A stretch of DNA of 64,000 nt from Candidatus Levyibacteriota bacterium (GCA_052034235.1 JBPOIT010000009.1:72203-136202); one strand, 5' to 3'. Positions 32,156 through 42,400 are shown, numbered from the stretch's first letter. The notes: generated from the letters alone by a model not told the origin. A program made the numbers and translations.

Positions 32156-32245
32156 TGGCGGAGAGAGGGGGATTCGAACCCCCGATAGCCTTGCGGCCAT
32201 ACACGCTTTCCAAGCGTGCGCACTCGACCACTATGCGATCTCTCC
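32156..32245 (-). tRNA. tRNA-Ser(GGA), class II, with CCA encoded
   Basis: Manual fold: acceptor GGAGAGA/TCTCTCC, anticodon loop TTGGAAA, long variable arm, T-loop GGTTCGAATCC. Confidence 0.8.
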
Positions 32246-32387
32246 AAAAGTTGTTTCTTTTATAAACTTTTTGTAAGCTTCCTATCAAGTTGTATATCAT
32301 TCCTGAGAGTATACTTATCGTGTCATTATATCGCATTTACAAGGTATTTGCATAAATGACAGAGAGATTGTAATATTAGGAGGAATT

Positions 32388-33125
32388 ATGAGTAATGAAA
32401 ATTCAGCAGAAGAAGGTGCAGTAGTCAAACCAGAGAGAGCTCATGAAGGTAATGCAGAGGTTGGAGAACCTCTGCCTGATCGCACAGCACCAAGTCGTTT
32501 GCAACCGCCAGAAACGGTTAATGTAGACGGTGAAAATTCTCCGAGTCAACCGGACCACGAGACACCATCTCCAGAGTTTAATGATTTGCACCCCGATGAA
32601 CGGAAAGCATTTGAGGAGCAAGGTATTACGAGCGATGTGTACGACGAGTTAAAGGAGTTAAGTCAGGAGATTATACAAAATGGCAGCCTTCCTCCAGAAA
32701 AACAAGAAAGGCTTGATGAAATGGTTGATAAACTGCAGGATTTGTCACCAGATATAAAACAGAAACTGGGTGAAATGTTAACGGCTGAGAACCAAAAGTT
32801 GAGCGAAGAGTTAGACAAACCCGATCCAGCTGCAGCGCTTGAAGTGGATCCTCAAACGGTTTCTGCACTCGGTGAAGCACAGGGGGCGGTTAATCATTTG
32901 CTTGCAAGTGATGAGAGAGAATTAGATATCGATCGGGCAAAAGCAGCGTCTGATGCATTACATAAAGCTCGAGAGAAGCTCGATCTTGAGAAAGCAGACA
33001 AATTAGGGGAAGGTCCGTCTAAGGCTTATAGGATATGGGTTACTTTGGGGATAATGTTTTATCTCTATGTAGGAGCGCAGTATGCGATGGCTAAATTTGT
33101 TGGCGGTTTTAGTTCCAATAAGTAA
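32388..33125 (+). CDS. acidic hypothetical protein with a C-terminal TM anchor
   Basis: Glu/Asp/Pro-rich with a coiled-coil-like segment. C-terminal YRIWVTLGIMFYLYVGAQYAMA. Confidence 0.45.
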   Translation: MSNENSAEEGAVVKPERAHEGNAEVGEPLPDRTAPSRLQPPETVNVDGENSPSQPDHETPSPEFNDLHPDERKAFEEQGITSDVYDELKELSQEIIQNGSLPPEKQERLDEMVDKLQDLSPDIKQKLGEMLTAENQKLSEELDKPDPAAALEVDPQTVSALGEAQGAVNHLLASDERELDIDRAKAASDALHKAREKLDLEKADKLGEGPSKAYRIWVTLGIMFYLYVGAQYAMAKFVGGFSSNK

Positions 33126-33187
33126 ATACCCGTGTAAGAATCCAAACTTCTTGATAGCATGTGAATTCTACACGGTAACCAATAATG

Positions 33188-33271
33188 CGGAGAGGGGGGG
33201 ATTCGAACCCCCGAGGCTCATCGCCTGGCGGTTTTCAAGACCGCTGCACTAAACCACTATGCGACCTCTCC
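33188..33271 (-). tRNA. tRNA-Ser(TGA), class II
   Basis: Manual fold: anticodon loop CTTGAAA, long variable arm, T-loop GGTTCGAATCC. Confidence 0.8.
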
Positions 33272-33337
33272 AGTCGTCTGTGTATTGTATCAAAAATTTT
33301 CCTTGACTTCATCCAGAGAATCATTTACAGTGAAGAT

Positions 33338-33985
33338 ATGAGTGAAGCTGCCCTTCAACCACAAGATCAACCTCAAGTGCCGCCTCAGGAGCCCCAACAA
33401 GCGCCTCCTCCTCCTATTCAGCAGCGGCCATATGATTCCAATCAGCCCTACCAACCAATGTATGCTAACCGATATGATCCCCGCGTCTCACACGATGTTA
33501 AAACATTTTTAACATGGCACGCTCCTGGTAGACCTTTTAAAGAGCACTCAAAGGAATACTTTATTAATGGTTTTCTTATTATGATGGCTCTTGAGATTAT
33601 CCTCTTTTTGTTTGCCCAATATCTTCTTATGTTGGTGGTTTTCTCGTTTGTCTTTTTGTCTTACTCGCTTGCCATTGTTCCGCCGAAAGATTTTTATTAC
33701 AAGATAACAAGCGAAGGCATTCGTATAGAGGACCATGTGTTTATTTGGGAAGAACTATATGATTTTTACTTTTTAACCCATCATGAAGAGGATACATTAC
33801 ATATCAGAACGAAGGCATATCTTCCCGGAGAATTAACTATTACGTTAGGAGATATCTCTGTTGGTCAGATTAAGAAAGTATTACTTCCATATCTTCCGTA
33901 TCGGGAATACGTCAGACCCAATTTTACTGAACAAGCCGGAGATTGGTTAACCCAAAACTTTCCTCTTGAAAGATCCACACAATAA
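33338..33985 (+). CDS. hypothetical membrane protein with a Pro/Gln-rich N-terminus
   Basis: The ORF track begins this ORF at 33185, but its first 51 codons are antisense to tRNA-Ser(TGA). The first ATG clear of the tRNA is 33338 (MSEAALQ...). Two TM helices. Confidence 0.5.
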   Translation: MSEAALQPQDQPQVPPQEPQQAPPPPIQQRPYDSNQPYQPMYANRYDPRVSHDVKTFLTWHAPGRPFKEHSKEYFINGFLIMMALEIILFLFAQYLLMLVVFSFVFLSYSLAIVPPKDFYYKITSEGIRIEDHVFIWEELYDFYFLTHHEEDTLHIRTKAYLPGELTITLGDISVGQIKKVLLPYLPYREYVRPNFTEQAGDWLTQNFPLERSTQ

Positions 33986-34038
33986 TTTGATTGCAAGCCT
34001 CAGATAAGGTAAAATACACATGTTGCTTTGCAAAATAC

Positions 34039-34112
34039 GCACCCGTAGCTCAGTTGGATAGAGCGCAACATTGCGGATGTTGAGGCCGGAAGTTCGAATC
34101 TTCTCGGGTGTA
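34039..34112 (+). tRNA. tRNA-Arg with apparent anticodon GCG (G34 instead of the usual A34)
   Basis: Manual fold: acceptor GCACCCG, D-loop AGTTGGATAGAGC, anticodon stem CAACA/TGTTG, loop TTGCGGA. It is closely similar to bacterial tRNA-Arg(ACG) except at position 34. Confidence 0.7.
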
Positions 34113-34119
34113 CACAGTT

Positions 34120-34209
34120 GGAGGGATCGCATAGTGGTCGAGTGCGGCGGTTTCGAAAACCGCTGTCCTGGATTTTCCGGGACCGTGGGTTCGAATCCCA
34201 CTCCCTCCG
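34120..34209 (+). tRNA. tRNA-Ser(CGA), class II
   Basis: Manual fold: anticodon loop TTCGAAA with a long variable arm. Confidence 0.8.
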
Positions 34210-34244
34210 CACAAAACAAAGATCAATTTTAATGCGAAATATCT

Positions 34245-34700
34245 TTAATGTTCCCAATAAAAATCAGGGGGTTCACCTTCACATGTTTGGGCAACAAAAT
34301 CTGGCTGAATGCCATCTCTCCAGGCAATAAGGACACAGCTTTTCGCTTTACCTCCACGTTCTTCAACTGCGCCTACCGCTTTACGAGTAAGGAGTCCTCG
34401 TTTACTGGCTTCATCAATGACAAGTACTTGTCGATTAGAACAATCTCCCAAACTAACTAATGTATCATCAAGATGATAATCTCCAGTTTCGTCTTTGTAC
34501 ACAGGAATCCCCACAACATTACGGCTTTTGATTTTCAGTCGTTTTGCAATTGCAGCAGCAACCGGAAAACCACCAGTACTTAATGCCAGAATAGTATCCG
34601 GTAGAAATGTATCGTCAGCTGCTATCTGTTCAAGGATTTCATCAAGAAGTCTATTAAATTTGTCCAATGTAACAATTTCTTTACTAGCGGATGCACTCAT
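34245..34700 (-). CDS. type I phosphoribosyltransferase (purine/xanthine-guanine PRTase-like)
   Basis: PRPP-binding motif VLVIDEASKRG. 151 aa. Confidence 0.65.
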   Translation of the reverse strand: MSASASKEIVTLDKFNRLLDEILEQIAADDTFLPDTILALSTGGFPVAAAIAKRLKIKSRNVVGIPVYKDETGDYHLDDTLVSLGDCSNRQVLVIDEASKRGLLTRKAVGAVEERGGKAKSCVLIAWRDGIQPDFVAQTCEGEPPDFYWEH

Positions 34701-34761
34701 ACATGGAGTATATCATTTTCAATTGTTTACGATGAACGGGGGAATTAAGTATGAAAACTTC

Positions 34762-34797
34762 GGGGCGGGCCAGATGGAACGATATTGGAACTTTTTT
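34762..34797 (+). repeat. tRNA-Ser(GCU) 3'-end-like direct repeat, copy 1
   Basis: GGGGCGGGCCAGATGGAACGATATTGGAACTTTTTT. It aligns to the acceptor-3'/T-arm of tRNA-Ser(GCT) at 37532-37560. Confidence 0.7.
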
Positions 34798-34830
34798 AGT
34801 ACTGCCAATGGTATAATTGACTAATTATTT

Positions 34831-35265
34831 ATGAAAAAAGTTATTAAAAAAGTTAATAAACCTATTTTCATTTTTGTCGCAGGGATTTTAAGCGCAATTA
34901 TAATTGGTGATTTGTTTAAAAATTTTTATAGAGATTTTATTTATAAAGATACAGACGACGTTATACTTCAAGAAGCTAAAAATTCACCCACTGATTATTT
35001 AACTGAACAATATACTGCTATATCTTTTGTAAATATGGGTGGTGGCGCTGCAGGGTATTGTGGGACATGGGTTTCAGTTGTGCCCATAAAAAAATTTGAT
35101 GAATTTCAAAAAGCACCATATTCGCTTGCTTATACTACAGATTGTGGAGCAGATATATCCTTAAAATGGATTGACAAAACAACATTAGAAATCAGTGGGA
35201 TAATTGATGACGAATACAACGAAAATAAAAATAGTGACGGGAAAGTAAAAATTATTTACAAATAA
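34831..35265 (+). CDS. hypothetical secreted/membrane-anchored protein
   Basis: N-terminal TM/signal anchor, 144 aa. The only plus-strand gene in the cassette array. Confidence 0.45.
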   Translation: MKKVIKKVNKPIFIFVAGILSAIIIGDLFKNFYRDFIYKDTDDVILQEAKNSPTDYLTEQYTAISFVNMGGGAAGYCGTWVSVVPIKKFDEFQKAPYSLAYTTDCGADISLKWIDKTTLEISGIIDDEYNENKNSDGKVKIIYK

Positions 35266-35303
35266 CACATTTTTTATCTAACACAGTTGATGCTAAGACT
35301 CTG

Positions 35304-35337
35304 AGCGGGCCAAAAGGGACGATGTTGGAACTTCTTT
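35304..35337 (+). repeat. tRNA-Ser(GCU) 3'-end-like direct repeat, copy 2
   Basis: GAGCGGGCCAAAAGGGACGATGTTGGAACTTCTTT. Confidence 0.65.
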
Positions 35338-35370
35338 ATCAAACAATACTAATTTTAGGCGAAATTAGTT

Positions 35371-35787
35371 TTATAATTCGACAGGATCATCATAGGCATC
35401 TTTCAGTAATTTAATTCTTTCGCCAAAAGCATCAAGTTGAGCGGGTTCAACTTTAAGCATGAGTGTACATTCTTCTGCGACTTCATATACTTCTTCAAAT
35501 ACTATTTTGAATTTTAAAATAATTAATCCTGTATTATTTGCTTTGAACCCTTCAATCTTTACACTTTTAACTTTACCATCAGATCCTTGCAGTTCCCAAA
35601 GGAATTTATTATCTGAGAGAATATTGGTAGTCAAATTTCTACCCCACGTTTTTTGTAAATCTTCTAGTGAAGCATAGCAATTGAAATTTGCAGACAGTCG
35701 GGCATTTGCTACATGTATATTCAATTCAATGAGATCCAGTAGTGAATCATCAACCCATCTAATATTAAAAATTAATTTATTTATCAT
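35371..35787 (-). CDS. hypothetical cytoplasmic protein (cassette gene)
   Basis: 138 aa with no recognisable domain. The minus-strand sequence TGCTATAAT lies 6 nt upstream of its ATG. Confidence 0.5.
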   Translation of the reverse strand: MINKLIFNIRWVDDSLLDLIELNIHVANARLSANFNCYASLEDLQKTWGRNLTTNILSDNKFLWELQGSDGKVKSVKIEGFKANNTGLIILKFKIVFEEVYEVAEECTLMLKVEPAQLDAFGERIKLLKDAYDDPVEL

Positions 35788-35793
35788 CCTTTG

Positions 35794-35856
35794 ATTATAG
35801 CAGAATTGAGGCTACGAAATATTGCGGGACAGTTGGGACAAAGTTTGAAGTTTTAT
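35794..35856 (+). repeat. degenerate repeat unit, copy 3 (ATTATAGCAGAATTGAGGCT plus a decayed tRNA-like part)
   Basis: GATTATAGCAGAATTGAGGCTACGAAATATTGCGGGACAGTTGGGACAAAGTTTGAAGTTTT. Confidence 0.55.
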
Positions 35857-35866
35857 CATTAAAAGC

Positions 35867-36334
35867 TCATTCTCTCATTATATTTAGTTTATAAAATATC
35901 GTATCTCTATATAGATCCATATCATCAGGTACTGAATCTACTTTTTGAAAACCTTCTTTCATGTAAAATTTATTTGCCGCAATCAAAGCTTTAATTGTTC
36001 CTAAAAATATATCATGATATCCATTGTCTTTCGCAAAAAACTTTAGTGTAGAAATCAGTTCATGTGCTACGCCCTTCCCTCTAAAGGTTTTATCTACGTA
36101 CATTCTTTTAAGATAGCCTCGATTACTGCCACAATTTTTCAGAGCAATAGTTCCGATTACTCTGTCATTCACAATCGCAATCCAAAAATTGCTTTTATCA
36201 TTTTGATAAACTTCAGGGATTTTGTCTAAGTCAGGTCGACTAACACCCGTTAATCCAAACTCATCCTCAAGGATATTTAAAATAAACTGCTTTGTTTTGC
36301 TTTTATATTCCTCCGAATACGTGCGTATTTCCAT
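35867..36334 (-). CDS. GNAT family N-acetyltransferase
   Basis: Acetyl-CoA-binding R/Q-x-x-G-x-G/A motif (FRGKGVAHELI). Start set at the ATG of MEIRTYS; the ORF track's N-terminal extension is a translation of the upstream repeat. Confidence 0.65.
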   Translation of the reverse strand: MEIRTYSEEYKSKTKQFILNILEDEFGLTGVSRPDLDKIPEVYQNDKSNFWIAIVNDRVIGTIALKNCGSNRGYLKRMYVDKTFRGKGVAHELISTLKFFAKDNGYHDIFLGTIKALIAANKFYMKEGFQKVDSVPDDMDLYRDTIFYKLNIMRE

Positions 36335-36396
36335 AAAAAGATTATAGCAAAGTTCCAAAGCACACAGAGTCTCTAAAAGAATTGAGGCTAGGAAAC

Positions 36397-36430
36397 GGGG
36401 CGGGCTAGAGGGGACTATATTGGAACTTTT
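36397..36430 (+). repeat. tRNA-Ser(GCU) 3'-end-like direct repeat, copy 4
   Basis: GGGGCGGGCTAGAGGGGACTATATTGGAACTTTT. Confidence 0.7.
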
Positions 36431-36716
36431 ATTCAATATAATGAGTATTTTTTACAGATTCAGGGGGGATAGTTAAACAGACAAAAATCAGTTCTTCATT
36501 AGAATCGTTTATTACTTCATGAACTTCACCTTTTTGGTAGATATATGTTTGACCTTCTTTATGAGTTTTGCAGTTACCTTTAATGACGTGGACTATTTCA
36601 ATACCATCATGAAAATGTTTCTTTTCAATGACGCCAGGTTTCATATAGTACACATCACAAGATCCAAAATCATCATGAGTTATTTTATGTGATTTTCTAT
36701 ATGGTGAAGTTGCCAT
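36429..36716 (-). CDS. cupin-domain protein
   Basis: Cupin_2-like metal-binding motif HFHDGIEIVHVIKG...GEVHEV. Start set at the ATG of MATSPYR; the upstream ORF-track extension translates the repeat. Confidence 0.6.
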   Translation of the reverse strand: MATSPYRKSHKITHDDFGSCDVYYMKPGVIEKKHFHDGIEIVHVIKGNCKTHKEGQTYIYQKGEVHEVINDSNEELIFVCLTIPPESVKNTHYIE

Positions 36717-36748
36717 TGAAGTAATTATACCAGTTCCAAAAAAGCTGT

Positions 36749-36783
36749 GGGGTGGGCCAGAAGGGACGATATTGGAACTTTTT
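36749..36783 (+). repeat. tRNA-Ser(GCU) 3'-end-like direct repeat, copy 5
   Basis: GGGGTGGGCCAGAAGGGACGATATTGGAACTTTTT. Confidence 0.7.
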
Positions 36784-36800
36784 GCCAATCTCGACAGTAA

Positions 36801-37094
36801 CTAATCACCAATAAATTTTATATATTCTAGATCATCTGCATTTTTTATAAAATTTATCATTTCGTTCTTAAGGTTTTGATTAATATTAAATCTTTGCAGT
36901 TCAGTAATTAAATCAGGTTTTTGAAGATCATTAAAATACGTATCGCCATAAGGGTCAATATATGAAAGTAAAGGAAATTTAGATTTATAATCCTTTATCT
37001 TATATAACTCACCCATAAAATCTGCAAAATTAATTCCACTTACTTTCAAGGTTTCTCCATCCTCGTTGATTTTTCTAATACCTATATGTTGCAT
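36801..37094 (-). CDS. hypothetical small protein (cassette gene)
   Basis: 97 aa with no recognisable domain. The minus-strand TGCTATAAT lies 6 nt upstream of its ATG. Confidence 0.5.
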   Translation of the reverse strand: MQHIGIRKINEDGETLKVSGINFADFMGELYKIKDYKSKFPLLSYIDPYGDTYFNDLQKPDLITELQRFNINQNLKNEMINFIKNADDLEYIKFIGD

Positions 37095-37100
37095 AATTGA

Positions 37101-37162
37101 ATTATAGCAGATATGAGGCTAAGCCGAGTAGCGGGCTAGATGGGACGATATTGGAACTTTTT
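37101..37162 (+). repeat. full repeat unit, copy 6 (ATTATAGCAGATATGAGGCT plus the tRNA-3'-like part)
   Basis: It aligns nearly base for base with 37501-37560, which is the flank plus 3' end of tRNA-Ser(GCT). Confidence 0.75.
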
Positions 37163-37184
37163 GCGCTCAAAGTTGAAAACGGAA

Positions 37185-37493
37185 TCAATAAATTAAGGGT
37201 AAAAGTTTTAATAATGATACTACGAAAAATACTAGCCCAACAATCAATGTCACGATCTGTTGAATCAGGAGCGCCCACTTCTCGGAAGCTGGAACAGGCT
37301 TATTATTCCAGTCCTTATACGCAAATTCTCCAAGTTGCCTAAATTTTATTATTAAGAATAATCCTGCCAATAATCCAAAAAAGTATCCATTTCCATCAAT
37401 TGCCATTAAAACCGATGCAGCTACTAAAAGTATGCCAGCTAAAATAGCGAAGGATTTTAGATGATCAATCATTTTTTTTGAAGTTTTAGTCAT
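37185..37493 (-). CDS. small membrane protein with 3 TM helices (first cassette gene after the tRNA)
   Basis: Start set at the ATG of MTKTSKK; the ORF-track extension runs antisense through tRNA-Ser(GCT). The minus-strand TGCTATAAT lies 7 nt upstream of the ATG. Confidence 0.5.
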   Translation of the reverse strand: MTKTSKKMIDHLKSFAILAGILLVAASVLMAIDGNGYFFGLLAGLFLIIKFRQLGEFAYKDWNNKPVPASEKWALLIQQIVTLIVGLVFFVVSLLKLLPLIY

Positions 37494-37531
37494 ATGAAAT
37501 ATTATAGCAGAATTGAGGCTGGGAAGCTGGG

Positions 37532-37620
37532 CGGAGGAGATGGGATTCGAACCCATGTGAGAGGTTTTAACTCTCGGTGGTTTAGCAAACCACTCCACTA
37601 GGCCACTATGGGACTCCTCC
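37532..37620 (-). tRNA. tRNA-Ser(GCT), class II
   Basis: Manual fold: acceptor GGAGGAG/CTCCTCC, anticodon stem GTGGT/ACCAC, loop TTGCTAA, long variable arm, T-loop GGTTCGAATCC. Confidence 0.8.
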
Positions 37621-37623
37621 AGC

Positions 37624-38625
37624 TTATAGAATTTGGTTATGTTTACGTAATCTTGCATTATGTGTGCCCACTATTTGCAGATATCTGTTAACTTCCTGCT
37701 CATTATACAACCAAACCTTTTTATTTTCTATCTTATCAATTATTTTTGGTGTGAATCCTAATCCTTCCAATGTTTGTGATACAAACAATAGCAGAGGTTT
37801 AGATCTATTTGTAAAACAGATTTTTTTATAAACATATTCCTTGTTGTTTCCTTTATATTTGTGCAAAAACACTCCACCGTCTGTATCCATAAGACCTCGT
37901 AAACAAGCAATTTTATATTCTTGCATTGAGGAGATCCAATCAGGTACCCCAACTTGCTGTTTTACTTTACTACCTATTTTCAAACCAAGTGTTGTAAGAT
38001 AATGAACTAAAGATACACCATTATAATAAAGAGATACGCCTTTATCATTTTTGTGTTTATGTATCCTTGGACTTTCTCCAAACAATTCTTTTCCAATCTG
38101 GCAAACGAAGAGAATATATTCTCTGTCTGCTTCACTATTTAACGTTATACAAATCTGTCCAGGGGTTAATCCGCCGTCTCCAAGCATAATCCCAATATAT
38201 TCTGCTAACTTGCTGCTATATCCTGAAGGAAGTGTATAACTTTTACAGAATGGTATAATCCCTTTCTCTCTAAGAAGAGCTAGCGCTTTTTTCCCACCCT
38301 TACTTCTTCCTTCTTTAGTCGCTTGACATCCATATTTTTTATATGCTGCAATTCCACCTATTGCATTTGCTTTTTGCTGAGCAGTTTTCCATCTTAGAAT
38401 CAGTACTTCTTTCTCTTCAGGTAAATGAAGATTAAATTTCTCACAGAATATCTCTGCCGCTCTTAGAGACAATGTTAGCTTCTCTTTTTTCCAATCTAGT
38501 AAACTTCGAGGATGAACATCAACCATTTTTGCCAACTGTTGGGTTGTTAAACCACTACTTGTATAAACATCTTTTAAGAAGCTTTTTTGCTGATTTAATT
38601 GGAACTTGACCCTTATATTTTTCAT
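37624..38625 (-). CDS. free-standing double-motif LAGLIDADG homing endonuclease with an N-terminal HTH
   Basis: Two LAGLIDADG motifs (IGIMLGDGGL and LRGLMDTDGGVF) and an N-terminal HTH-like segment (LTTQQLAKMVDVHPRSL). Its stop lies 3 nt from the tRNA-Ser(GCT) 5' end. Confidence 0.75.
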   Translation of the reverse strand: MKNIRVKFQLNQQKSFLKDVYTSSGLTTQQLAKMVDVHPRSLLDWKKEKLTLSLRAAEIFCEKFNLHLPEEKEVLILRWKTAQQKANAIGGIAAYKKYGCQATKEGRSKGGKKALALLREKGIIPFCKSYTLPSGYSSKLAEYIGIMLGDGGLTPGQICITLNSEADREYILFVCQIGKELFGESPRIHKHKNDKGVSLYYNGVSLVHYLTTLGLKIGSKVKQQVGVPDWISSMQEYKIACLRGLMDTDGGVFLHKYKGNNKEYVYKKICFTNRSKPLLLFVSQTLEGLGFTPKIIDKIENKKVWLYNEQEVNRYLQIVGTHNARLRKHNQIL

Positions 38626-38735
38626 ATCGGCTACGCAGATCCTCTATAAAACTGATCCTATCAATTTTAACTTCACACTACAATAGGAGATTCATAATTG
38701 AGTATTTTATGCTACAATCAAAAACATCCTAACTT

Positions 38736-38820
38736 GGAGAGGTCGCATAGTGGCCGAGTGCAGAAGTTTACTAAACTTCCGACCTGCAAGGGTCCGCGGG
38801 TTCGAATCCCGCCCTCTCCG
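38736..38820 (+). tRNA. class-II Ser-type tRNA with apparent anticodon ACT (a non-canonical A34); possibly a variant or a pseudogene
   Basis: Acceptor and D-arm are identical to tRNA-Ser(TGA). The anticodon stem GAAGT/ACTTC encloses the loop TTACTAA, so positions 34-36 read ACT. Long variable arm and a canonical T-arm. Confidence 0.6.
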
Positions 38821-39019
38821 CATCTATTCATGCAAGAGTTTTATGCTACAATATTTACATGTCCCTCCTCGATTTTCTTTTTCCTAAGCGGTGTGTCCGT
38901 TGCCAAAAAATTGGGTCTTATATTTGTCCTCAGTGTTCTACCTATATTTCTTTTACTGACACAATAATCTGCGTTTCGTGTCAGCGTCCGGCGATTGGTG
39001 GTATTATGCATCCTGATCT

Positions 39020-39286
39020 TCAATTCTGATAACCTTTCTGCGTTGTAGGATCAGATAATTCAGAGGCATCAGTTGGTGCTTGTGGTAAATGATTAGGAAT
39101 CTCCGTTCCTACTAGCTCTACTAATCGTTTCGGCAAATCAGGGTCAATGTCAGCGATCTCCCTAGTTAATTCACCTATTACTTCAGCTCTGTCTTCCGGA
39201 ATTATTCCTCCATATGAAAAGAGCTTTTCTATTTTCGCTCGTTCAATGCCATTCTCTTCAAGCTTCGTTCTAATATCTCGTGGCAA
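39020..39286 (-). CDS. hypothetical acidic small protein
   Basis: 88 aa with no recognisable domain. Confidence 0.35.
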   Translation of the reverse strand: MPRDIRTKLEENGIERAKIEKLFSYGGIIPEDRAEVIGELTREIADIDPDLPKRLVELVGTEIPNHLPQAPTDASELSDPTTQKGYQN

Positions 39287-39454
39287 ACCCTCATACGTGA
39301 ACGTAGCAGAATCTGTAGTCCACAGAACCTTGCTCTCCTGCTTGCTGTTAAGAGTTGTTTGGGGTATTGTACTTAACGGCTTTTGGTTATGATCGTAGCA
39401 TGGTGGTATTCGTCGGCGGCGAAAAAAATGTGTAGGAATTGTTTGGGAGAGAAA

Positions 39455-42400
39455 TTAGGATTTGGATTTTTCTGCTTTACCTTCTTCTTTTTGGAAGACG
39501 AGGTAGTAGACGACAGGGATGAAAATAAGCATGATTGTTCCTGAGAACAGGAGTCCTGAAATAATTGCACCGCCGAGTCCTCTCCAGAATGGATCTGAAA
39601 GAGTAATTGGGATAAGACCGAGAATTGCGGCGATTGATGTTAACGTAATTGGTTCAAGTCTACTTTCTGCTGCTTCAGCAATTGCCTGACGGAATTCCAT
39701 TTTTTCTTTGAGATTTTGATTGATTTTATCAACGATAAGAATTGAATTTTTAACAACAATACCAAAAAGCGCGAGTACACCGATCAGTGCAGGGAATGAG
39801 AGTGGTGTATGTGTAAGCCCGAAGACAATAAACACTCCTGAGATAGAAAGCGGGATAACAAGCATAACGATAAATGCTTTTCTGAAAGATGAGAATTGCA
39901 AAACCATGGTGACAATAATTAAGAAGAATGATAATAACATTGCTTGCAAAATAGCATTTACCGAGTTTTGATTTTCTTCATTAATGCCTCCTGTTTGCCA
40001 CTCATAACCTTCTGGCAGTGTGAGTGTGTTTGCAAACTGTTCCAGTTTGGCATTTTCTTCGGTCGGAAGGACGCCTTTGGTAACCCCAGCTGAAACTGAA
40101 ATAGTACGTTTGCCGCCTTCTCTTGTGATAAGAGAAGGGTTTGGGCGAAGCTCAAATGAGCCAAGAGCTGAAAGCGGTACTGGTCCGTTTTGCGTTGCGA
40201 TGACGATCGTGCCGGCAGATTGTGCAGTTTGTTGAGTTGTTGCTGTTCTTAGGACTATGTTTTGGCTGTCAGAAGATTCCGCTTGGAGTTTTGCATCTTC
40301 CTTCATCGTAAAACCGCTTGCGTATGTTCTCATGAACAGACCCAATTGATCTTCCGTGACACCAGCTGCGAGCATTTTATCTGTGTCGGGGACAAAAACA
40401 ATTTTACTCGTACCTGCTTTTATCGATTTAGACACATTGGTGACTCCTGATTGTTTTTCTAAAAACTGAACTAATTGGTCAGCATATCTATCAAGAACAG
40501 CAAGATCGTCACCAGATAGTTTAATTTGCAAATCAGATCCTGCTGGTGGCCCGCCGCTTTCTTCAATTACTGAAATCTTGCCGTTAGAATATCCAGCATA
40601 TTTTGCTCTGAAGTTTTCTGCCATATCGATTGAGGAAATAGGTCTTTCATTTTCTGGCGGCAAAAGTACTGTTATAAGAGCTGTATTATCACTTGCTCCA
40701 GAAAACCCTCGCGCTGGATCGATACCGAGACGAGGTGTTGCTGTGACAAATTTTACATGTTCGGTTTTCCGAATATCTTCAAGGAGAACCATCATTTCTT
40801 TGGTCGTTTGTTGCAAGTTTGTTCCTTGCGGGAGTTCTACTGAAATGTATAAATATTCAGAATCACTCTTTGGGAAGAATTCGTTTTTGACAAAACCAAA
40901 CGGTACCAATAAATAAGAGAAAAGTGAAAAGATGACAACTGCAAGTACGGTTTTCCGTCTATTTATTGATTTTGCCAGAATGCGATCAATCAGTGAACGG
41001 TATTTTCTTTCAACAATTGAAAAATTAATCACACCATGATTCACATATTGTGAGAGATTTGCAGAACTTTTTTTTGTGGTTCTCGATTGAATATTTTTCC
41101 TAGCGCGATTAAATAAAATATATCTAACTTGAAAATAGACAAAAAGATTGAGGAGAAAAAGCAGCAACGCTGGAATAAAAAGTGGCCCTTGCGGCATGAT
41201 TGCAAGAAAAATGGCAAAGACAACAGCAACGCCGATCAGTCGGAACAACACCACAACGCGATAGGGAATAGTTGATTTCAAGAGCAGTAGTAAAAGTGGC
41301 AAGGTGACAAAAAGTGCTACACCAAGTGACGCTATGAGTGTACTTGAAACAACAATTGGGATTGCACGTATAAATTCTCCGATAATACCGGTTGAGAGAA
41401 GAAGTGGTACAAAAGCCCAAACTGTTGTTAACGTTGTTGTCAAAATTGGTGTTTTAAAATCACGCCAGACAAGCATTCCAGCTTCAAAAGGAGTAAATTT
41501 GCCTGTGCGGTAATAAGCAGTAACTGCCGAAATGACAACGATCGTATCATCAACTAACAATCCGAGTGATAATAGAAGTGAGAAAAATGCGATGAAACTT
41601 AATGGCACACCAGTGACATTCATAACTAAAAACGTAACAAGAAATGTTAATGGGATAGCAAAGGAGGCGATGACTGCTTGTCTAATGCCAAGGAATAAAA
41701 AGAGTGCGATAAACACTAAGGTGACGGTTATTAAAAAGTCACGAATAAGTTCATAAAACTGTTCGTCAATTTGTTCTCCCGTATTAAGAATAGTTGAAAC
41801 AGTATAGGTGTCACCATATGCTTTGATGACTTCATCAGTCACTTTTTTTGCCTCTTCAACGGGTTTTGTGATGTTTGCAGAACCAGTTTTATAAACATCA
41901 AAACGTATTGTTTCACTCTGTGTTTGTGAGCCTGTTGCGATATATGATGTTGCAGAATCTGGTTTAATACGCTGCTGAATTGTAGCAACATCAGAAAGCA
42001 TGATTGTGGTCATTCCAGTTTTAATTTTGATATTTCGCAGGTCGTTAACAGTTGTGACTGTTGGATCAATGCTCAGACCAAATGAAGATCCGTTTGTTGC
42101 AATTGTCCCGGCAGGGAATGATCCCGTCGCAGTTTTTATGGTTTGTGCGATAACTGCTGGATTTATTCCGTAGAGCGCTATCTTTTCAGGTTCTATTAAA
42201 ATTTGTATTTCTTCATCATCAATGCCAGCGACTTCTACTCTTTCAATACTTGGCAAATCTTCAAGTCGATCTCGAATTGTTTTTGAAAGACGTGTCAGAC
42301 TTAACGAATCTACACTTTTGCTGCTCAGTGCAAATGTCCAAACTGGCTGATTTTCAAAATCAAGTTTTTGCACTCTGGGATTTTCTGCATTTTCCGGAAG

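Follow-up and report, generated by a model that had tools for sequence, protein, structure and literature searches.

A strain-variable gene islet at a tRNA-Ser(GCU) gene of a Candidatus Levyibacteriota bacterium, probably formed by site-specific insertions of a large serine recombinase

In a 64,000-nucleotide (nt) stretch of DNA from a Candidatus Levyibacteriota bacterium (GCA_052034235.1, JBPOIT010000009.1:72203-136202), hereafter called the window, six small genes follow the 3' end of a tRNA-Ser(GCU) gene and are set apart by copies of a short repeat, whose conserved core we call T. The locus is probably a strain-variable islet that arose at this tRNA gene from site-specific insertions by a large serine recombinase (LSR) encoded outside the window. 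T has the features of an attP-type left half-site, the T-arm and acceptor end of tRNA-Ser genes has those of an attB-type left half-site, and T marks the attR-type junctions of LSR elements inserted at tRNA-Ser genes. Moreover, comparison of near-identical strains showed that the array turns over at about 1% divergence.

Results

Architecture of the repeat array

A previous sequence-only reading of the locus had described six repeats downstream of the tRNA gene, and all six were confirmed at their positions, with the T cores on the minus strand and the matches confined to the array. T is a 29-nt module with the consensus AAGTTCCAATATCGTCCCATCTGGCCCGC on the tRNA strand, and its six copies (R1 to R6) lie between tRNA-Ser(GCU) and a phosphoribosyltransferase (PRTase) gene. 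On the same strand a full unit consists of T, a variable linker of about 10 nt, a 12-nt module called S (AGCCTCAATTCT), the box (TG)CTATAAT, 6-7 nt and the ATG; an optional insert after S is made of about 18 nt and TTTGGAACTTT, which repeats the start of T in inverted orientation. The features of the locus, in minus-strand order and with lengths in amino acids (aa), are listed below.

37624..38625, minus: helix-turn-helix (HTH) and LAGLIDADG_3 open reading frame (ORF), 333 aa, low GC, ending 3 nt short of the tRNA 5' end
37528..37621, minus: tRNA-Ser(GCU) (ARAGORN; Rfam tRNA match, 51.5 bits)
37494..37527, minus: tRNA-proximal junction, with a linker of about 10 nt, S (AGCCTCAATTCT), TGCTATAAT and 7 nt to the ATG
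37185..37493, minus: cassette 1 gene, 102 aa, predicted peptide with three transmembrane (TM) segments, no family match
37101..37162, minus: R1, with T at 37131-37159, linker, and S plus TGCTATAAT at 37101-37121
36801..37094, minus: cassette 2 gene, 97-aa hypothetical protein
36724..36785, minus: R2, with T at 36752-36780, 13 nt, TTTGGAACT and TGGTATAAT, no S
36429..36716, minus: cassette 3 gene, 95-aa cupin (Pfam Cupin_2, E 4.6e-08)
36341..36432, minus: R3, long form, with T at 36400-36428, linker, S at 36378-36390, about 18 nt and TTTGGAACTTTGCTATAAT
35867..36334, minus: cassette 4 gene, 155-aa GNAT acetyltransferase (Pfam Acetyltransf_1, E 2.4e-17)
35794..35856, minus: R4, with a decayed T at 35824-35852 (7/29 mismatched) and intact S plus TGCTATAAT at 35794-35814
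35371..35787, minus: cassette 5 gene, 138-aa hypothetical protein
35275..35337, minus: R5, with T at 35305-35333, degenerate S and -10 modules, no tRNA-strand gene after it
34831..35265, plus: cassette 6 gene, inverted, 144 aa, N-terminal TM segment, own TGGTATAAT box upstream
34762..34798, minus: R6, terminal T only, at 34765-34793, followed by the constant flank GCCCCGAAGTTTTC...
34245..34700, minus: PRTase gene, 151 aa (Pfam Pribosyltran), with a TGATATACT box 6 nt 5' of the ATG

The repeat is specific to this place. A core 20-mer matched the window five times (0.00 expected) and a flank 20-mer three times (0.01 expected); all core matches fell in the array, with none elsewhere in the 64 kb, and all flank matches inside 34.7-37.6 kb. 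Five repeat copies could be aligned at once without gaps. Neither T nor S was found in the other ~61 kb of the window or in non-tRNA-Ser contexts across ~200 kb of related loci, so that, as far as the window goes, they are not a genome-wide promoter element.

The copies are not equally complete. The proposal that each carries the flank of the tRNA gene holds for the tRNA itself, R1, R3 and R4, where S is followed by TGCTATAAT, whereas R5 is degenerate, R2 has TTTGGAACTGGTATAAT and R6 has no flank at all. Likewise, a copy stands directly 5' of most genes, but what follows R5 is the 3' end of the plus-strand gene, and R6 lies 65 nt from the ATG of the PRTase gene. The tRNA-proximal flank shows the linker, S and -10 box without T, the genuine tRNA end standing in its place. 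The optional part of the long form is absent from R1 and R4, and the architecture of R3 recurs in the related loci L020 and L006 (L numbers denote related contigs). The mismatches of T to its consensus amount to 1, 2, 3, 7, 3 and 1 from R1 to R6, which does not bear out a progressive decay along the array.

No stable hairpin or terminator was predicted in the units: single-stranded folds gave z values of -1.45 to +1.48 against shuffled sequences, with only a 7-10-bp terminal stem in R2 and R3 and an unstructured interior. At the gathering threshold Rfam returned tRNAs only, and at E values up to 10 nothing credible was found over the array, L008 or L009. T and the unit that follows are open in frame with the cupin gene (36429-36788) and the GNAT gene (35867-36436), from TTG starts and with the reading ...KSSNIVPSGPP..., which also occurs upstream of the PNPOx gene in L008. 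As the conservation is at the nucleotide level, this in-frame reading is probably incidental.

Promoters of the cassette genes

An extended -10 box lies 6-7 nt 5' of the start codon at each array gene, in agreement with the suggestion that every cassette has its own promoter, here a predicted one. This type of signal (TGN-TATAAT-N6-7-ATG) is, however, generic in the organism: similar boxes occur 6-9 nt before the start of at least 10 other genes of the window, and thus the promoter part of the unit is generic while T and S are not. Across the whole window Shine-Dalgarno motifs are nearly absent, being present at 3/61 long ORFs; the sequence suggests widespread leaderless mRNAs in this organism.

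S occupies fixed positions 13-24 from the CC shared by T and the tRNA end, which correspond to the promoter spacer (-26 to -15). Since promoter function does not explain why this spacer is conserved, S may be a right-arm recognition element.

Half-site geometry of T and of the tRNA end

Counted outward from the shared CC, tRNA-Ser ends read AGGAGAYRGG-ATTCGAACC and T reads GCCAGATGGG-ACGAT-ATTGGAACT. The 9-bp motif ATTSGAACY is common to the two and occupies positions 11-19 in the tRNA and 16-24 in T, and AGAYRGG is common to both at positions 4-10. In serine integrase sites the motif bound by the zinc-ribbon domain lies at positions 16-24 of attP half-sites and at positions 11-19 of attB half-sites, that is, 5 bp nearer the crossover (PMC3783163; Rutherford et al.). 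The offset between T and the tRNA equals this shift of 5 bp (PMC3783163), and T is composed of a 25-bp conserved block, the length expected of an attP half-site, followed by CC and then by GC, the last two bases of the tRNA end. On these features T marks an attR-type junction left by one insertion.

The sequence-only reading had taken the repeat for a decaying copy of the 3' end of this tRNA. T differs from that end by a 5-nt insertion and at three acceptor positions and is better described as a conserved attP-type half-site that resembles the tRNA end. This explains the apparent 5-nt insertion, the conservation of T across genomes with differing tRNAs and the modest level of plain similarity between T and the tRNA. 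The CC of ...CTCCT-CC-GC, a non-palindromic dinucleotide, is proposed as the crossover because of the boundary of the T block, the motif distances and the breakpoints of the strain alleles described below.

Other assignments were tried and rejected. T is not a displaced original tRNA 3' end, as it is identical across genomes with differing tRNAs and would fail to base-pair with the acceptor strand GGAGGAG. Taking S or the TTTGGAACTTTG module for an inverted right half-site or an internal attB-like site gave inconsistent distances. A crossover at the 10-nt repeat GAAATATCAC in L006 was dropped, the CC of CCGC being the only position that fits all elements, the T boundary and the allele breakpoints.

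Serine recombinase elements at tRNA-Ser genes of related genomes

In three lineages (L006/L007, L033 and L034-L038) an LSR gene lies against, or overlaps, a tRNA-Ser gene at its 3' end, and the element, 4.8-5.8 kb in size, has T at its far end. In a fourth lineage, L032, the junction of LSR and tRNA is alike, but the contig stops before the far end. The LSR gene lies on the opposite strand and overlaps the 3' end of tRNA-Ser(GCU) in L032 and L033 or of tRNA-Ser(GGA) in L034-L038; the adjoining tRNA ends with CTCCTCCGCCA, followed by the conserved arm AAYTGAAATATCAYCGGTTTC. The 5.6-kb element located after tRNA-Ser(GCU) in L006 encodes an LSR of 483-515 aa, whose domains are Resolvase, Recombinase and Zn_ribbon, together with a rolling-circle Rep protein (REP_ORF2-G2P), an XRE-type HTH protein and a NUDIX protein, whose stop codon overlaps an exact T. 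The LSR family has hundreds of members, the few named ones belonging mostly to Gottesmanbacteria, Roizmanbacteria and Dojkabacteria, and its profile matches the SPbeta integrase over positions 37-455 (E 1e-21); no relatives were found in IMG/VR.

T is identical or near-identical in other contigs of the Candidate Phyla Radiation (CPR). A nhmmer profile of T run on ~200 kb of related loci detected copies only at element junctions and in arrays. T always ends with CCGC, as the tRNA does, and then gives way to whatever chromosomal flank is local: L008 and L033 continue with the PNPOx leader, L009 and L034 with the sequence upstream of tRNA-Ser(ACU), and the tRNA-Ser(GCU) sites of L006 and L033 with a linker-S flank. 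A second array was found in L020, which belongs to another species and encodes a flanking protein 76% identical to that of the window: its tRNA-Ser(GCU) is followed by an S-like promoter, a 76-aa membrane ORF, T with a long-form unit and a GNAT gene, and then by a second T module with EamA and PCC genes. The two GNAT proteins share 26% identity and are not orthologous. L033 carries a small array with T after tRNA-Ser(ACU). T was absent from L021/L022 and L039-L041, where tRNA-Ser(GCU) is directly followed by a ComF-like gene, and from L042. A strict T pattern returned one match in GTDB representative genomes, three in JGI metagenomes and none in IMG/VR, indicating that T is rare and lineage-restricted.

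Some further observations were made on these elements. The LSR ORFs (L006 1129-2676; L032 1254-2756; L033 4396-6012; L034 10001-11479) have no stop within the element and read over the attL junction, antisense to the tRNA, for 10-56 extra codons, so that excision would alter the C-terminus, the frame then running into T in reverse complement. At element ends a TATAAT-like box and, after it, the motif ACGGGTTTTG(A) stand shortly before T, and the motif is found once more in the tRNA-side arm (L008 805-837; L009 1082-1114; L033 56-95; L006 1236-1250); in a circular form its copies would be direct repeats about 60 nt apart around the putative attP. At L006 97-125 a 35-nt scar of an LSR-element arm (GCCAGACTTAAATATCATCAGTTTTCTTCAAAT) lies between tRNA-Ser(UGA) and tRNA-Ser(ACU) and testifies to an earlier insertion, since lost by deletion. 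L006 (DATMOG010000004.1) was deposited as Candidatus Sulfotelmatobacter (Acidobacteriota); with its 34% GC, CPR-type tRNA-Ser cluster and CPR-like flanking proteins, it is probably mis-binned.

Strain variation of the array

Contigs encoding an identical flanking protein were compared and fell into two classes. Class W (L001, L004, L005, L010, L014 and L017) carries the array of the window or its distal part, while class V is made up of L012, L015 and L016. L012 is 98.8% identical to the window over 32158-34798 and 99.7% over 37501-41907; between these flanks it has 573 nt with two unrelated small membrane-protein genes, replacing 2702 nt and six genes. Near-identical strains thus bore out the expectation of a varying cassette content with a conserved tRNA and endonuclease gene, and the PRTase flank is conserved as well.

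On the tRNA side W and V are identical through ...CTCCTCCGCCC and the difference begins directly after the tRNA ...CCGCCC: four of the eight following linker positions differ, S and the -10 box match at 20/20 positions, and the alleles then diverge, so the two tRNA-proximal junctions have the same S and different linkers. On the distal side the alleles are unrelated up to TAAAAAAGTTCC, show two differences inside T and are identical from GGCCCGCCCCGAAG on, the divergence ending within the terminal T, before GGCCCGCCCC. R6 is the distal boundary of the variable segment and, given breakpoints at the tRNA end and in the terminal T, the swapped segment is bounded on both sides by CCGCCC. The exchange occurred en bloc. 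Six more contigs end inside the terminal T, at 34768-34777, as expected if several alleles coexist in those samples.

Genomic surroundings

On the minus strand the HTH and LAGLIDADG ORF, tRNA-Ser(GCU), the six small genes and the PRTase gene are followed by convergent tRNA-Ser(CGA) and tRNA-Arg genes. The GC content of 34.6-38.6 kb, which comprises the array and the LAGLIDADG gene, is 0.30-0.36, and that of the flanks 0.40-0.48; this low GC supports an origin of the islet by insertion. The PRTase gene, a constant flank of higher GC kept in both strain alleles, was probably the original neighbour of tRNA-Ser(GCU). The separated cassette genes are mutually unrelated according to Pfam, and searches with PADLOC and NCBIfam assigned neither a defence nor another specific function to the hypothetical ones. 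The remainder of the window is ordinary chromosome, with pgk, dnaN, yidC, resistance-nodulation-division (RND) efflux and type IV secretion system (T4SS)-like genes. A conserved membrane protein adjoining the tRNA cluster has more than 1000 homologues, and the few that are named include Candidatus Levyibacteriota, Saccharimonadales and 'Patescibacteria group', which places the window in a CPR bacterium, probably a Microgenomates-like one. The GTDB representative genomes do not include that of this bacterium.

Five tRNA-Ser genes (GGA, UGA, CGA, GCU and ACU) and tRNA-Arg(GCG) lie within about 7 kb of the window (32156-38821), and this cluster is syntenic, with rearrangements, in many Microgenomates-like contigs. 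The tRNA-Ser with anticodon ACU, hence with A at position 34, was called by ARAGORN at 38736-38821 on the plus strand and matched the Rfam tRNA model with 52 bits. A34 tRNA-Ser is unusual in bacteria; here it is kept beside the tRNA-Ser cluster in all the related CPR loci (L006, L009, L012, L020, L021, L033, L034, L039 and L042). In L009 two partial 5' ends of tRNA-Ser(ACU) (GGAGAGATCG...) stand just upstream of the intact gene, at 1262-1373. HTH and LAGLIDADG ORFs are found tight against different tRNA-Ser genes in two species, and the copy in the window cuts the tRNA off from any upstream promoter.

Discussion

Proposed mechanism

The data support a cassette-like island anchored at the tRNA 3' end, as the sequence-only reading had suggested. 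According to the mechanism that we propose, the inserted unit would begin with GC-linker-S and an extended -10 promoter, continue with a single leaderless gene and end with T, and single cassettes would be mobile. The unit would enter by integrase recombination between its own T-CC site and the ...CC of the tRNA, and each new insertion would displace the older units distally, resulting in the order tRNA-unit1-T-unit2-T...-T-PRTase. As the tRNA-proximal junction again has the linker and S, the product would resemble the substrate, making the site reusable and serial insertion feasible. Any T could in principle recombine with the tRNA junction and excise the units between them. The integrase would act in trans, provided by elements with LSR and Rep genes like those at the tRNA-Ser genes of related genomes. 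The earlier observation that the locus lacks a recombinase held for the window, but LSR genes do abut tRNA-Ser genes in relatives, and action in trans is required here.

A number of observations weigh against this mechanism, of which the serial reuse of the insertion site is the weakest step. To our knowledge canonical serine integrases do not recombine attL with attP, and reuse of the tRNA site therefore needs a non-canonical site behaviour or intervening events. The right half-sites, made up of linker and S, do not repeat the left motif in inverted form, which leaves a dyad-symmetric canonical attP or attB undemonstrated: on the right the inverted motif occurs only in R2, where TTTGGAACT, an inverted copy of the outer motif of T, stands at 14-22, and the P' arms of the LSR elements have just ATCGG at 17-21. 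The similarity between T and the tRNA is weak when taken alone, 28/2000 shuffles scoring as well (p about 0.014). A tblastn search with LSR and Rep sequences found neither in the 64-kb window, and Pfam scans of the locus genes and of 20 larger ORFs outside the array found no other recombinase. Allele V has one gene junction with S and a -10 box and no T. Look-ups of the exact LAGLIDADG and GNAT proteins returned the same array only, with no third allele and no relocated cassette, and no circular cassette, excision junction or cassette shared at another array position was observed. Homologous recombination within the conserved flanks could also account for the difference between W and V.

Alternative explanations

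The main alternative, which we judge unlikely, is that full-size LSR/Rep or other elements inserted repeatedly and were trimmed by deletion to a distal cargo gene and an attR scar, namely T, leaving immobile cassettes, the present variation being due to homologous recombination or natural transformation through the conserved flanks and repeats. Deletion decay does occur, as the P'-arm scar of L006 shows, and the small NUDIX gene of L006 abuts T just like the cassette genes; the degenerate state of R4 and R5, the en bloc exchange and the remnant pattern of the tycheposon islands discussed below fit as well. On the other hand, no remnant of the LSR-type P' arm (AAYTGAAATATCA), LSR gene or Rep gene is present in the array of the window, the starts of the units are too regular for random deletions (10-nt linker, S at 13-24, -10 box 6-7 nt from the ATG), and the tRNA-proximal junctions of both alleles share S with different linkers. 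If only this decay took place, the locus would be an ordinary tRNA-linked island in an unusual host. A tentative possibility of another kind is a cassette system resembling an integron and run by a large serine integrase, in which the tRNA-Ser end with the linker and S would be a permanent insertion site and T-CC-GC-linker-S the cassette site. Like right halves would let recombination regenerate both site types, and an integrase provided in trans by small LSR/Rep elements would insert and excise single-gene cassettes bearing promoters time and again. Such a system would provide genome-reduced CPR bacteria with a dedicated locus for gene sampling.

The remaining explanations do without an LSR. 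It is very unlikely that T, linker, S and promoter act as punctuation of expression, a terminator, processing or regulator site joined to a promoter and spread by duplication or gene conversion with no role in recombination. Each unit does sit between a stop codon and a leaderless promoter, and in L008 and L033 T lies in the PNPOx 5' leader, downstream of a TATAAT box; the foldings and the Rfam search gave no hairpin, terminator or RNA family, T is restricted to tRNA-Ser-linked junctions and LSR-element ends, the 5-bp offset of the motif with respect to the tRNA is specific to integrase site logic, and tandem duplication is excluded since the genes are unrelated. Even less credit can be given to an integron-like system in which T would be a site of attC or dif type, served by an IntI-like tyrosine recombinase or by the host Xer. 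The co-directional single-gene cassettes beside a fixed site and a shared CCGCC(C) core that might be an overlap region would be in line with it, but no tyrosine recombinase was found among the Pfam-scanned ORFs of the window or at any T-bearing locus, T has neither dyad symmetry nor a single-stranded hairpin and co-occurs with LSR genes, and each cassette has its own promoter. Least probable of all is that the LAGLIDADG endonuclease breaks the tRNA flank and repair captures foreign genes. In its favour, no other DNA enzyme is encoded nearby, and its gene adjoins the tRNA and has the low GC content of the island. However, this gene lies beyond the variable segment, 5' of the tRNA, and the two alleles conserve it at 99.7%; its homologue in L020 (970-2004, 34% identity) adjoins tRNA-Ser(CGA) while the L020 array follows tRNA-Ser(GCU); L033 and L006, like other contigs with T, have T junctions and no LAGLIDADG gene; and break repair would not leave ordered attP-type half-sites. 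A driving role for the endonuclease is therefore not favoured.

Significance

The genomes of CPR bacteria (Patescibacteria) are tiny, and characterised mobile elements from them are few. Among the open-access papers and preprints searched, none was found to describe a cassette locus at tRNA-Ser in CPR, nor integrative elements of the LSR/Rep kind. If insertion by an LSR is correct, these elements would define a serine integrase family with the conserved tRNA-Ser 3' end as natural attB and with an attP half-site that can be read straight from genomes, which would be useful for integrase bioprospecting. The locus would also be a natural case of apparently serial reuse of a serine integrase site, challenging the strict rule of attP x attB recombination, and would offer a concrete and testable way for streamlined episymbionts to sample small accessory genes at strain level.

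Comparison with known systems

Integrons encode the tyrosine recombinase IntI next to attI, their attC sites fold as single-stranded hairpins, and their promoterless cassettes are served by a common Pc promoter. Functionally the locus is similar: the insertion point is fixed, the single-gene cassettes share one orientation and each terminates in a conserved site of about 60-95 nt, and the content differs between close strains. The integron likeness drawn by the sequence-only reading nevertheless failed in its defining parts: no IntI or Phage_integrase match was obtained for the locus genes or for 20 other Pfam-scanned ORFs of the window, the sites lack attC-like hairpins, and each cassette has its own extended -10 box as a predicted promoter in place of a common Pc. 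The anchor, moreover, is a tRNA gene.

The sites are closer to those of the large serine integrases (A118/LI, Bxb1, phiC31, SPbeta; PMC3783163), sharing the motif at 16-24 in the P-type and 11-19 in the B-type site, a 25-bp P half-site, a non-palindromic central dinucleotide (CC) and LSR genes at the element end beside attL. They differ in their target, which here is the 3' end of tRNA-Ser, restored by the element; in their right half-sites, where no inverted copies can be recognised, the match being on the left half-site only; and in the tandem array, which implies reuse of one site and should not be possible for canonical unidirectional integrases.

Accretion of cis-mobilizable and of integrative and mobilizable elements (CIME and IME) leads, in the part of PMC5704250 that treats it, to non-autonomous att-flanked units placed in tandem at a tRNA gene, with the integrase in trans. 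The locus likewise has tandem non-autonomous units beside a tRNA and a proposed trans integrase. Compared with the elements in that part of the source, its units are much smaller, the integrase would be of the serine and not of the tyrosine type, and conjugation or mobilisation functions are missing.

Finally, in the tycheposon islands of Prochlorococcus elements integrate at tRNA sites, later arrivals push earlier ones inward and partial-tRNA att copies remain between elements; degraded remnants accumulate, and the islands are strain-variable, occur in streamlined genomes and in a minority of cases use large serine recombinases (bioRxiv 10.1101/2020.12.28.424599). Here too the locus abuts the 3' end of a tRNA, tRNA-like att copies separate the units, and the content varies among close relatives with conserved flanks and with empty sites in L021 and L039. 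Tycheposons are, however, multi-kb elements with integrase and replication genes, whereas the units of the locus are single genes of 0.4-0.6 kb with a predicted leaderless promoter of their own; what repeats is not an identical partial tRNA but a half-site of attP type, offset by 5 bp; and the host is a CPR bacterium, with the integrase absent from the locus. Islands seeded at tRNA genes, as tycheposons build them, come closest to the locus in behaviour.

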